Shown piece by piece: positions 1,020 through 3,487 of a stretch of DNA of 64,000 nucleotides. Every line of letters starts with the position of its first letter. The first letter of the stretch is position 1. The position numbers and the translations under genes are program-made. Under the pieces are notes generated by a model. That model made no database searches, was not told where the DNA came from, and saw only the letters and a list, made by a program, of their open reading frames with translations. The stretch spans positions 1 through 64,000 of IMG/VR virus record IMGVR_UViG_3300005613_000015; one strand, 5' to 3'. The DNA comes from a virus.

Positions 1020-1118
1020 GCCTTTCGAGGAGGAAATACAAAAGTTTTTTTGCGTGACCTCCTAAGTCCTTGCTATGCATGGGTTTACGACGGGACGGAG
1101 GCCCCCGCCAAAGGGGGT
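1014..1118. repeat. About 100-bp dispersed repeat upstream of class A promoter, copy 1
   Basis: Aligns with 1733-1835 and 2692-2786; contains A/T tract, 25-bp TAA-N19-TTA element (1063-1087) and GC hairpin (1101-1118). Confidence 0.9.
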
Positions 1119-1151
1119 GTAGACCCTCAAACTCGGGCGCTATTGGCCGAT

Positions 1152-1424
1152 TCAGTTCCAGTCGTCGTAGCTGTAGGAGTCGTCATCTCCCCAGCCAGCC
1201 GAGGTGAAAGCGGACTCGTCATCCCCATCGTTGCAATCGGGTTCTTGCGAGAAGGACACGCCCTTGTCGCAGGTGCAGGCGACTTTATCGCCGTAGTCGT
1301 CGTAATCGTACCCCGTATCGTTGCAGCGGTTGCACTCGAAAGGGGTCCAGTTCTGGGAAGCCTCGAAGGTTTCGAGGTAACGGAAATCGCCTTCGTACTG
1401 GCTAAAAGTGTTGTCGTTCATCAT
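1152..1424 (-). CDS. Highly acidic small early protein with CxxC/CxC (90 aa)
   Basis: ATG 1424 lies 6 nt after TATAAT; Asp/Tyr-rich. Confidence 0.8.
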   Translation of the reverse strand: MMNDNTFSQYEGDFRYLETFEASQNWTPFECNRCNDTGYDYDDYGDKVACTCDKGVSFSQEPDCNDGDDESAFTSAGWGDDDSYSYDDWN

Positions 1425-1459
1425 GCGTGTATTATACCAGAGGTTAGTGAGGTTGTCCA
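1425..1459 (-). promoter_or_regulatory. Early leaderless promoter, class B (TGGACA-17-TATAAT-6-ATG)
   Basis: -35 at 1454-1459, -10 at 1431-1436. Confidence 0.85.
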
Positions 1460-1461
1460 GT

Positions 1462-1704
1462 CTATTCTTCGGAATCTTCCGAAAAAATATCATCCTGGCA
1501 GGACTGGCACATCCCCGAAATCTTGTATTCGGCCAGGGAGAGCGCATCGCGCCAGTAGCCACCATCGCCAGGGTAGGCGTCATGGGCAGGGATGCCCTCT
1601 TGGTCACAGGTGACGCACCATCCCCGCTCGATGCACTCGACACGGTTGGAGCCAGTAAGGTTGAAGGAGACGTCGAGCACGGGCGCTTTGTCGGTTGCTT
1701 TCAT
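1462..1704 (-). CDS. Small putative Zn-binding early protein (80 aa; CVTC...CQSC)
   Basis: Two CxxC pairs; ATG 1704 lies 6 nt after TATAAT. Confidence 0.8.
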   Translation of the reverse strand: MKATDKAPVLDVSFNLTGSNRVECIERGWCVTCDQEGIPAHDAYPGDGGYWRDALSLAEYKISGMCQSCQDDIFSEDSEE

Positions 1705-1738
1705 GGGTGTATTATACCACATCCTCGCAGGATTGCAA
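1705..1738 (-). promoter_or_regulatory. Early leaderless promoter, class A (TTGCAA-16-TATAAT-6-ATG)
   Basis: -35 at 1733-1738, -10 at 1711-1716. Confidence 0.85.
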
Positions 1739-1835
1739 GCCTTTCGAGGAGGAAATAAAAAGTTTTTTTGCTTGACCTTGTAAGTTCTTGCTATTCATGG
1801 GTTTACGGCGAGCGGGTGGCCCCCCGCAAGGGGGC
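1733..1835. repeat. About 100-bp dispersed repeat upstream of class A promoter, copy 2
   Basis: 25-bp element at 1781-1805; CCCCC-GCAA-GGGGG hairpin at 1821-1834. Confidence 0.9.
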
Positions 1836-1838
1836 GCG

Positions 1839-2033
1839 TCAAGCAGAAAACCCCAATTCTTGAAGGTCTTTTTCAATTTCTTCGGCGCAAGGCTTACAGC
1901 AGTCCGTGTAGCCGTTACGGGCTTTCTCGGTCACGGAAAGGTTTTGTTCGCACACTTGGCAGGTGAACCACGTTTGCGCGAGCTTGGTTTGGTCTGCCAG
2001 CCACTCGGAGTAGTGTAGGTCGTTGTAACTCAT
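1839..2033 (-). CDS. Small putative Zn-finger protein (64 aa; CQVC...CCKPC)
   Basis: TAATG-coupled to the upstream gene; Cys pairs. Confidence 0.75.
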   Translation of the reverse strand: MSYNDLHYSEWLADQTKLAQTWFTCQVCEQNLSVTEKARNGYTDCCKPCAEEIEKDLQELGFSA

Positions 2034-2305
2034 TATTCGTTAGAGGTATCCTCTTGCCGTTGAAGAATAGGGTGAAGTCGGTTAGAATACTCCAACTTAC
2101 CATAGTAGTAGTCGTAGTTATTCATAACTCGGATTCGAGCATCCGTAAGCGTACGAACGTCTTGAATGTTCAGGTAGATTCGATTAGGACCCATCGAGGG
2201 GATGGACACCTGATAAGCTCGCTCGCGGTCTTTGCGTTCCGCGATGACGATTTCGCCTACCATGTAAATGCTTTCGAGAGGAGCGGTATTCATGTCGTTT
2301 TTCAT
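2033..2305 (-). CDS. Early hypothetical protein (90 aa, MKNDMNTAPL...)
   Basis: ATG 2305 lies 6 nt after TATAAT. Confidence 0.75.
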   Translation of the reverse strand: MKNDMNTAPLESIYMVGEIVIAERKDRERAYQVSIPSMGPNRIYLNIQDVRTLTDARIRVMNNYDYYYGKLEYSNRLHPILQRQEDTSNE

Positions 2306-2340
2306 GCGTGTATTATACCAGATGGGAGAGGGTTTGTCCA
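2306..2340 (-). promoter_or_regulatory. Early leaderless promoter, class B (TGGACA-17-TATAAT-6-ATG)
   Basis: -35 at 2335-2340, -10 at 2312-2317. Confidence 0.85.
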
Positions 2341-2357
2341 GAGGAAACTTGAGAAAG

Positions 2358-2528
2358 TTAGAGGATGGGACGCTCTTCGACCTCAACCTCAGCGTTAGGC
2401 CATTCAGCCATAAGCTCAGCCTGACGGACAAGCGCGGTCGCCTTAGCGGCGTGGAGACTGTCCAGAACCTCCTCAGAGGAGCTAAGGGAGATGAGGACGA
2501 CGAACACGGTGAGAGGGGTGTCTTTCAT
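2358..2528 (-). CDS. Small early protein (56 aa, MKDTPLTVFVVLISLSSSEEVLDSLHAAKATALVRQAELMAEWPNAEVEVEERPIL), not in ORF track
   Basis: Hand-translated; fills the space between two promoters. Confidence 0.75.
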   Translation of the reverse strand: MKDTPLTVFVVLISLSSSEEVLDSLHAAKATALVRQAELMAEWPNAEVEVEERPIL

Positions 2529-2563
2529 GGGTGTATTATACCAGAGGGAAGAGGGTTTGTCCA
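2529..2563 (-). promoter_or_regulatory. Early leaderless promoter, class B (TGGACA-17-TATAAT-6-ATG)
   Basis: -35 at 2558-2563, -10 at 2535-2540. Confidence 0.85.
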
Positions 2564-2570
2564 GAGAAAA

Positions 2571-2663
2571 CTACAGAAAAGCTGCGAGTTGGTACAGAAA
2601 CAGAATCGCCAAGCCAAGACCGATGAGTTCGAGGACTTCGAGGAGGAGCTTCGTTTTCTTCAT
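2571..2663 (-). CDS. 30-aa membrane peptide (MKKTKLLLEVLELIGLGLAILFLYQLAAFL), not in ORF track
   Basis: Own promoter 6 nt upstream; basic N-terminus followed by a hydrophobic helix. Confidence 0.7.
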   Translation of the reverse strand: MKKTKLLLEVLELIGLGLAILFLYQLAAFL

Positions 2664-2697
2664 GTGTGTATTATACCACACTTCCGAGAGAATGCAA
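2664..2697 (-). promoter_or_regulatory. Early leaderless promoter, class A (TTGCAT-16-TATAAT-6-ATG)
   Basis: -35 at 2692-2697, -10 at 2670-2675. Confidence 0.85.
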
Positions 2698-2786
2698 GCC
2701 TTTCAAGGAGGAAATAAAAAAGTTTTTTTGCATGACCTTGTAAGTTCTTGCTATTCATAGGTTTACGGCTCGCCGGGGGCCGCCGT
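2692..2786. repeat. About 100-bp dispersed repeat upstream of class A promoter, copy 3
   Basis: 25-bp element at 2741-2765; nearly identical to copy 2 over about 70 bp. Confidence 0.9.
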
Positions 2787-2808
2787 CAAGAAAATTTTGG
2801 ATTTTTTT

Positions 2809-2901
2809 CTAGCGGTCTTGCTCGCCTTGTGAGGCGGCTACGCACAAGGACCAAGCGACGAACGCTAGGCCAGCGCAGATGATTCCGAGAGCAACTAGCA
2901 T
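2809..2901 (-). CDS. 30-aa membrane peptide (MLVALGIICAGLAFVAWSLCVAASQGEQDR), not in ORF track
   Basis: ATG overlaps the upstream stop (ATGCTAG); hydrophobic helix. Confidence 0.55.
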   Translation of the reverse strand: MLVALGIICAGLAFVAWSLCVAASQGEQDR

Positions 2902-3122
2902 CCTGCGTAGGCGCTCTGCGTAGCTCGCCAGGGCTTCATCAGGCTACCGTTGTGGTTGCCGTAGTGCTTGCCGCACTTCATGCGAGGAAGCGACTGGCGA
3001 AGGCTGATGTAATGCTCCAGCAGAGCCAGGACGAGCTTGTTCTCGCTCGGAAGCGCCTTGTAGGTGAGGGCGAAGAGGGAACCGATGAGGTGAGAGTAGA
3101 CGTTGATGATGTCGTTTTTCAT
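2895..3122 (-). CDS. Early hypothetical protein (75 aa, MKNDIINVYSH...)
   Basis: ATG 3122 lies 6 nt after TATAAT. Confidence 0.7.
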   Translation of the reverse strand: MKNDIINVYSHLIGSLFALTYKALPSENKLVLALLEHYISLRQSLPRMKCGKHYGNHNGSLMKPWRATQSAYAGC

Positions 3123-3157
3123 GTGTGTATTATACCACGGGTTAGAGAGTTTGTCCA
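3123..3157 (-). promoter_or_regulatory. Early leaderless promoter, class B (TGGACA-17-TATAAT-6-ATG)
   Basis: -35 at 3152-3157, -10 at 3129-3134. Confidence 0.85.
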
Positions 3158-3175
3158 GAGGAAACTTGGATTTTT

Positions 3176-3322
3176 TCAAAAAGAGGGGAGCATCCGAATA
3201 AGCTCCGCAGCGCGCAGCGCAATCGTAGCGCATACCGTCAGGGCGAGAGCGAGGACATCCGAGAACATAACCGTAAGAACGCCCAACAAGACCCATTTGA
3301 TGATTTTTCCGTTTTTCTTCAT
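3176..3322 (-). CDS. 48-aa membrane peptide (MKKNGKIIKWVLLGVLTVMFSDVLALALTVCATIALRAAELIRMLPSF), not in ORF track
   Basis: Own promoter; basic N-terminus followed by a long hydrophobic stretch. Confidence 0.7.
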   Translation of the reverse strand: MKKNGKIIKWVLLGVLTVMFSDVLALALTVCATIALRAAELIRMLPSF

Positions 3323-3356
3323 GCGTACATTATACCACGTTCTTATAGGATTGCAA
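3323..3356 (-). promoter_or_regulatory. Early leaderless promoter, class A (TTGCAA-16-TATAAT-6-ATG); first of the array
   Basis: -35 at 3351-3356, -10 at 3329-3334; diverged 25-bp TAA-N19-TTACG element at 3383-3407. Confidence 0.85.
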
Positions 3357-3487
3357 GCACTTTTTGAAGAAATATGTCCTCCTAACCCCCTGGGGGGTAG
3401 GCACTTACGTCACCGGAGAATTTCGCGTTTTTTGGTACCATAGACGCAGCGGTTTGCGTATTACTTCCCGAAGGTTCATCTTTGTAA

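Follow-up and report, generated by a model that had tools for sequence, protein, structure and literature searches.

What is the short palindrome that precedes the first promoter of each small transcription unit at the left end of an uncultured phage genome, and what acts on it? The question is raised by the window, that is, the whole stretch of 64,000 nucleotides analysed here, which is the first 64 kb of IMG/VR virus record IMGVR_UViG_3300005613_000015, a linear sequence of 101,674 bp that is 93% complete according to CheckV. The leftmost 3.4 kb holds small leftward genes with one promoter per gene, and a single promoter design (-35 / TGGTATAAT / 6 nt / ATG) occurs in nine copies between 785 and 3337 on the minus strand; because TGGTATAAT stands six bases ahead of the ATG, the early mRNAs are predicted to be leaderless. 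Four of these promoters (class A) have TTGCAA or TTGCAT as their -35 and five (class B) have TGGACA or TTGACC, and the -35/-10 pairs match at 10 of 12 positions. Class B promoters adjoin the stop codon of the preceding gene, whereas class A promoters follow a gap of approximately 165 bp that contains, in gene-strand order, a GC hairpin, a 25-mer and a 43-bp A7/T-rich block before the -35; each early unit thus runs from box to A promoter, gene, B promoter, gene(s) and hairpin, "box" being the name used here for the 25-mer. An initial annotation located the boxes at 1063–1087, 1781–1805, 2741–2765 and 3383–3407, each followed by CG on the plus strand, as they indeed are, and read them as sites for a dimeric protein, either a regulator or a site-specific recombinase. 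The 25-mer is a real cis-element, more than a product of chance or duplication, and from its sequence it is assigned as a single-box, slightly diverged member of a family of 25-bp dyads, CG-TAAGTNCTT-N7-AAGNACTTA-CG. It is, on balance, just probable that the box works as a docking site in double-stranded DNA for a putative sequence-specific dimeric protein at the boundaries of early transcription units.

On its own, the loose pattern TAA-N19-TTACG lacks significance, since 2.8 matches are expected per window and four or more were found in 31 of 100 shuffles. A position weight matrix (PWM) trained on other phages alone, all of them relatives, and scored at 101,650 positions of the genome is far more selective: its five top positions are the four boxes of the window and a fifth copy outside it, while the best score in 20 shuffled genomes averaged 9.2 bits and reached 20.3 in one of them. 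The fifth copy, TAAACCCATGTAGGACAAGGACTTA, at 93628–93652 of the genome (9628–9652 of locus L367), ranks first with 21.0 bits; it follows the end of a gene and GC-rich sequence, and 41 bp further on is the -35 (TTGACC) of a rightward promoter that gives an mRNA with a leader. The possibility, left open at the outset, that no further copies would be found is thus answered by the copy at 93,628. The other boxes are all on the minus strand: box 1 (1063–1087; TAAACCCATGCATAGCAAGGACTTA on the gene strand) ranks second with 20.8 bits and has a near-identical copy at 1284 in the closest relative, L095; box 2 (1781–1805) ranks third with 17.4 bits, box 4 (3383–3407) fourth with 15.0 bits and box 3 (2741–2765) fifth with 12.6 bits. 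The distance of about 43 bp to the -35 that had been given for three of the sites measures 43, 42 and 43 bp for boxes 1, 2 and 3, upstream of promoters A1, A2 and A3, and 26 bp for box 4, upstream of A4, and each of the five top sites lies 45–62 bp before a TGGTATAAT -10. Box 4, which lies inside the divergent gap, is degenerate, with two of the 12 fixed positions off, and holds a CCCCC/GGGGG hairpin; A4 is the first promoter of the leftward early array.

Copies 1–3 sit within a longer repeat of approximately 115 bp, and this, together with the frequency expected for the loose pattern, is what speaks for a duplication relic or a chance resemblance without a function of its own. Such an origin is extremely improbable and has been largely refuted: a matrix built from other phages places the sites at ranks 1–5 of the genome, the same geometry recurs in hundreds of occurrences, and the neighbouring promoter spacer diverged while the box did not. 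Among A1–A3 conservation is unbroken from the -35 to about -108: the box has 22 invariant positions out of 25 and the adjoining block 38 out of 43 (88% together), compared with 5 of 13 (38%) for the -35/-10 spacer, and similarity is lost beyond the box. This difference implies that the upstream part is under constraint, although in copies 1–3 the box is not a conserved island and is no more constrained than the neighbouring block.

The family itself was recognized in other viral sequences. A search with the promoter motif returned 117 IMG/VR contigs, among which those bearing promoter arrays have 25-bp TAA...TTA elements before some promoters; more than 100 IMG/VR contigs carry promoters of the leaderless TGGTATAAT-ATG design, and the exact 18-base pattern of TAAGTNCTT-N7-AAGNACTTA occurs in at least 120. 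With one mismatch at most over the 12 fixed positions, 238 viral loci (2.28 Mb) contain 648 boxes against 15 matches to the reversed control, counts that are not independent because many of the loci are related. Across these loci the box is constant in length, at 25 bp, and usually has CG on both flanks; positions 1–9 and 17–25 are conserved (T/A/A 97–100%, C7 94%, T8/T9 97–98%) and the central 7 bp are unconstrained. The proposal that length and ends are kept while the interior varies is therefore borne out across hundreds of phage contigs, whereas the 10-5-10 layout first ascribed to the element gives way to the 9-7-9 symmetry seen across relatives. The boxes of the present genome deviate from TAAGTNCTT-N7-AAGNACTTA at one or two of the 12 fixed positions. 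A string search of the literature for the half-site returned nothing relevant.

Most boxes of the family are paired, their starts lying 53 bp apart in 121 cases and 52 bp apart in 28, approximately five helical turns. The resulting 78-bp unit of most relatives consists of a box, a GC-rich core and a second box, is followed by an A/T-rich stretch and the -35, and is usually located between a gene end and an early promoter; conservation is strongest in the half-sites beside the GC core and weaker in the outer ones. The present genome shares with this paired form the box consensus, the GC core and the place between gene end and early promoter, and differs from it in that its boxes are single and tied to leaderless class A promoters. 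No second box was found at ±53 bp or elsewhere among the top PWM sites, and the boxes stand after the GC hairpin instead of around it, the distal half reading TAAACCCAT. L095 has both single and double boxes, always at class A promoters, and in G306, a complete 200-kb phage with 25 boxes (23 of them inside 57.8–74.3 kb), the very first promoter of the early region has the promoter-side box alone.

Several other short motifs were noticed at these junctions. In the sister lineages L272 (1400–5600) and L056 a perfect dyad, GTTACG-N4-CGTAAC, lies beyond the GC hairpin, at the place of the distal box of the others. The GC cores of L110, L120, L275, L285 and L353 frequently contain GCGAAGC, a sequence that forms an unusually stable mini-hairpin. 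In G306, at 58.8–60.4 kb (L370), a sigma54-promoter-like sequence, TTGGCACG-N4-TTGCA, stands between the double box and the sigma70 promoter; these sigma54-like boxes proved to belong to another palindrome, TGCCAA-N6-TTGGCA, which is absent from the window.

A palindrome next to a gene end may be conserved as DNA or as a stem in RNA, and the two cases leave different traces. At the variable positions 4–7/19–22 the number of Watson-Crick pairs does not exceed the shuffled expectation (132 against 147.2 ± 4.7 in distal boxes and 130 against 139.0 ± 4.4 in proximal ones), so that the arms do not covary; the halves are rather anti-correlated, which may mean that a strong half compensates for a weak one. 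Mismatches in the would-be stem are common, the 6–20 pair being mismatched most often and the 7–19 pair in approximately 40% of proximal boxes. Covariation was found neither between the two boxes of a unit, under any pairing scheme tested, nor between the GC core and the centre of a box. On either strand, the four regions fold no better than shuffled sequences (z-scores of -1.2 to +0.4), no U-run follows the box, and Rfam gave no match at E ≤ 1 in the region of the window and none in the bacterial copies described below. An apparent antisense G-U bias disappeared once many boxes were counted. Since the arms do not covary, the folds are those of shuffled sequences and no Rfam family matches, a role as RNA or as a cruciform is unlikely; the half-sites are conserved as sequence and not as stem partners, a pattern characteristic of symmetric proteins that recognize double-stranded DNA. 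Of the functions initially considered, the site for a dimeric DNA-binding protein is thus the best supported, by the conserved 9-bp half-sites, the free 7-bp centre, the lack of covariation, the constancy of length and ends over hundreds of phage contigs and the further copy in the genome, with the binder itself putative.

The phage to which the box belongs places it in a known context. The genome encodes a large terminase, a T4 gp20-like portal, a tail sheath, a ribonucleotide reductase and two gp55-like sigma region-2 proteins, which together identify a distant T4-type myovirus. Its portal shares 31% identity with those of T4-like phages of Microcystis and Flavobacterium; nothing relevant matched in nucleotide searches among cultured phages, neither these nor the portal comparison gave a close cultured relative, and the box is missing from the cultured phages whose portals are nearest. 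The closest known analogue is the promoter-early stem-loop (PeSL) cassette, a terminator-promoter module of T4-type phages that mediates, through its promoter, the modular shuffling of genes (Arbiol et al., 2010, PMC2839356; Comeau et al., 2014, PMC4122927). Both are composite intergenic modules of a T4-type myovirus (stem-loop, A/T-rich tract, sigma70-type early promoter and small ORFan), both occur in many copies in a plastic early region with a stem-loop sequence typical of the lineage, and in both, close relatives have their cassettes in shuffled order, the junctions lying in conserved parts of the promoter. The differences are equally clear. PeSLs hold one short stem-loop that is read as a terminator, whereas here a separate 25-bp dyad box, whose arms do not covary, lies between the GC hairpin and the promoter; the conserved box is not the terminator stem-loop itself, for which the GC hairpin, as a distinct element, is a candidate. 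Most relatives have two boxes exactly 53 bp apart, the consensus is common to lineages that share almost no genes, and the leaderless mRNAs of the present genome have no Shine-Dalgarno part.

This resemblance leads to an alternative that we consider unlikely: the box might be a passive part of a PeSL-like mobile terminator-promoter cassette, a weak second stem-loop that ends or stabilizes the upstream transcript, its similarity being kept by the spread of cassettes and by homogenization through recombination without a dedicated binder. A distant T4-type myovirus is where such cassettes would be sought, the order of hairpin, A/T tract, sigma70-type promoter and small gene is that of a PeSL (Comeau et al., 2014, PMC4122927), the same early cassettes are shuffled between this genome and L095, and a GC hairpin at the unit end always stands beside the box. 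The same palindrome, followed by a T-run, is moreover found in the manner of a terminator after tmRNA or tRNA genes in some Planctomycetota and spirochaetes. However, a passive stem-loop fits poorly with arms that do not covary, frequent stem mismatches, shuffled-like folding and a box without a U-run, and a hairpin has no need of rigid pairing at 53 bp. The consensus is also kept across nearly unrelated lineages while the centres differ inside one genome, which is not what recent copying would give. Were the box nevertheless a passive cassette part, PeSL-type modular shuffling would extend to distant T4-type phages with leaderless mRNAs. We class the units as cassettes of the PeSL type that carry, in addition, a widely conserved dyad box; what is new here is the reduced single-box form at leaderless class A promoters, the fifth copy in the right arm and a test of breakpoints against a close relative.

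That breakpoint test bears on the recombinase, the other function initially proposed, under which the box would be a site-specific core site and the blocks integron-like mobile cassettes. The idea has some appeal: several early cassettes are common to this genome (1–3400) and L095 (700–5200), with 75–98% identity and a different order, and the 9-7-9 geometry of the box equals that of a tyrosine-recombinase core, which, as in lambda att, has two 9-bp arms around a 7-bp overlap. It is nevertheless very improbable. The homology blocks shared with L095 stop at the -35 or the -10 of promoters (for example, 809–1019, 2030–2351 and 2524–2698), not in the box, and one block (973–1155) passes right through box 1. 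The 7-bp centres differ among copies, which would block strand exchange between them. Neither PF00589 (Phage_integrase) nor PF00239 (Resolvase) has a match in the 93%-complete genome, so that the earlier remark that the window lacks a recombinase gene extends to the whole record. Integron cassettes, furthermore, are promoterless and have attC sites of variable length, whereas here each cassette has its own promoter and a fixed 25-bp box. The integron reading is therefore unsupported, and homology that ends at promoter cores fits the promoter-mediated shuffling of PeSL cassettes and not an exchange in the box centre.

The position of the box speaks partly for a link with the promoter and partly for one with the unit boundary or with termination. 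In favour of the promoter, the box precedes, among leaderless promoters of relatives, 32 of 64 of the TTGCA type (50%) and 28 of 185 of the TKGAC type (15%), an association with an odds ratio of 5.6 (p = 1e-7) when relatedness is ignored. Distances from box to -10 fall into two main classes, 49 and 59.5 bp, approximately 10.5 bp or one helical turn apart, and the promoter-side box that stands alone at the first early promoter of G306 likewise favours this link. What the sequences show is conservation, geometry, position and the absence of a base-pairing constraint; that a protein binds, and in which direction it acts, we infer. An early unit of this phage comprises the GC hairpin that presumably closes the previous unit, the box, an A/T-rich UP-like tract, the leaderless class A promoter, a gene, the internal class B promoter and further gene(s). 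The putative protein, if bound at about -78 to -103, would be the immediate upstream neighbour of an RNA polymerase at the promoter with which the unit begins. A less certain guess is that the bound protein gates or assists initiation at this promoter and shields it from read-through. It could be encoded by the phage or by its host.

Several observations weigh against a dimeric protein that acts on early promoters, besides the relatedness of the counted loci. The spacing from box to -35 is variable (20–45 bp), and the copies of the present genome, 64–65 bp from the -10 hexamer, lie outside both main phase classes. The box is constantly accompanied by a GC hairpin and a gene end, so that a role linked to termination is inseparable from one linked to the promoter. 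Promoters packed against the previous gene have no box, and at the first promoter, where nothing upstream has to be terminated, the box is degenerate here, half-degenerate in L061 and absent in L095. The search for a binder points the same way. Pfam gave nothing for the genuine leaderless early proteins, and no phage-encoded HU/IHF was found in five box-bearing phages (this genome and four others). A BLAST comparison of this genome with G306 showed only enzymes of nucleotide metabolism and replication in common (dUTPase, DnaB, ThyX, ribonucleotide reductase, deaminase, nucleases and similar), and a profile search of 81 box-neighbour families against this genome found a remote homologue for the gp55-like sigma only. 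Clustering of the open reading frames around boxes revealed no universal neighbour; the commonest is the same gp55-like sigma family (149–234 aa), which adjoins the box arrays of the 200-kb phage lineage. The other dyads that occupy the same junctions in sister lineages hint, for their part, at lineage-specific and hence phage-encoded binders.

A host factor is possible as the binder, and the absence of HU/IHF from the phages means that an architectural bending protein of the IHF type, shaping the DNA upstream of early promoters, would have to be the host's. This explanation is quite doubtful. Each half of the box contains CAA-N4-TTA, which overlaps the IHF core WATCAANNNNTTR, although its presence is partly built into the search pattern, and boxes 1–3 read TAGCAAG(G/A)ACTTA, with 12 of 13 positions matching. 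The diagnostic T, however, is disfavoured at box position 15 (T 19%, A 44%), position 14 is unconstrained, the well-conserved positions 4–7 fall in the unspecified N4 of the IHF site, and a symmetric 9-7-9 dyad is a poor fit to an asymmetric site. Bacterial genomes provide evidence on both sides. In favour is a Sedimentisphaerales metagenome-assembled genome (MAG; G004), which has a GC-box, a 9-nt linker and the box approximately 55 bp upstream of its own sigma70 promoters, by housekeeping genes. Against it, paired 78-bp units are nearly missing from bacterial genomes, and the single box reaches only about twice the control in 301 Planctomycetota genomes.

The bacterial occurrences deserve some description. 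At least five chromosomal copies of an intergenic module of approximately 330 bp are present in G004 (L241, L243–L246), each composed of a T-run, CGGGTGGGCC, 9 nt, the box and about 55 bp; in three copies these are followed by a TTGACA-17-TAATAT promoter and a conserved leader, which are weak or absent in the other two, and the copies adjoin unrelated genes (DAP epimerase, PriA, a sigma70-family gene and an FGE-sulfatase protein). A planctomycetotal host was considered, as bacterial matches to the exact pattern looked enriched there, and was rejected on the twofold figure just given. Paired 78-bp units have 14 matches in bacterial genomes against approximately four expected, mostly on short contigs of freshwater MAGs binned to unrelated taxa, and they are read as mis-binned phage DNA, L163 being the one examined. 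In three Planctomycetota MAGs (L127, L145 and L204) and at several spirochaete loci, the same palindrome, TAAGTCCTTG-N5-CAAGGACTTA, followed by a T-run lies a few bases past tmRNA or tRNA genes, in the manner of an intrinsic terminator.

Other known palindromic elements resemble the box in part. The operators of phi29 p4 are imperfect inverted repeats with distant half-sites, centred near -82, on which dimers pair into tetramers. They resemble the box in being a long dyad with an unconserved centre, located between about -70 and -100, upstream of the -35, and often present as two sites on one face of the DNA, and they supply the working analogy of a switch protein for early promoters; they differ in phage type and show no similarity in sequence, and a p4 homologue was not found. 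The CIRCE operator of HrcA, TTAGCACTC-N9-GAGTGCTAA, lies downstream of the promoter of heat-shock operons; it is likewise a 9-bp inverted repeat with a fixed spacer, conserved over very distant genomes, but its half-site sequence is another and its spacer has 9 bp, compared with 7 in the box. REP/BIME elements are high-copy elements of enterobacterial hosts, with pairing stems and fixed pairs around a linker at gene ends, for which the binding of an architectural protein has been proposed. Palindromic units, fixed pairs around a linker and location at gene ends are common to them and the box, whereas the box family is carried essentially by phages and shows no covariation of its arms.

A broader proposal, to which we hold only tentatively, is that the box and its putative phage or host DNA-binding protein constitute a widespread system for gating early units and marking their boundaries, a protein-operated upgrade of the PeSL that would control the first promoter of every unit and also mark exchangeable gene modules. 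Should a protein indeed bind the box, one undescribed control element of the first minutes of infection would be common to hundreds of uncultured large phages of lakes, seas and sediments, and a handle would be gained on how blocks of early genes are switched, insulated and swapped. The box is short, exactly defined and easily synthesized, which makes it directly testable, and in metagenomic phage genomes it would be of practical use for locating early regions and the boundaries of units.

The remaining features of the early region are on the minus strand. Promoter A1 (983–1019) has its -35, TTGCAA, at 1019–1014, its extended -10, TGGTATAAT, at 1000–992 and the ATG at 985, and the same layout recurs with -10 positions at 1711, 2670 and 3329. 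The conserved 43-bp block between box 1 and the -35 (1020–1062) contains an A7/T-rich tract that resembles an UP element; the equivalent blocks are at 1739–1780 and 2698–2740, 38 of the 43 positions being those invariant among A1–A3, and its GTCA(A/C)GCAAAA-T-run is retained in L095 and L109. The GC hairpins, identified from sequence and fold, precede the boxes on the gene strand. The first (CCCCC-loop-GGGGG, 1102–1117) lies past the stop of the gene at 1152–1424 and 14 nt before box 1; no U-run stands behind it, and it presumably marks the end of the preceding transcription unit. The second (GCCCCCC-loop-GGGGGGC, 1819–1835) is 13 nt before box 2, and a GC-rich hairpin region (2766–2788) stands immediately before box 3. 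The early proteins encoded at 797–985, 1152–1424 and 1462–1704 have no Pfam family and are shared with a few relatives; behind A1 is a very basic protein of 62 aa, and two further small Cys-rich proteins have 80 and 90 aa. Elsewhere in the genome, at 67551–67943 (minus strand) and 97720–98304 (plus strand), small proteins with sigma70 region 2 only are encoded, which are candidates for gp55-like late sigma factors.

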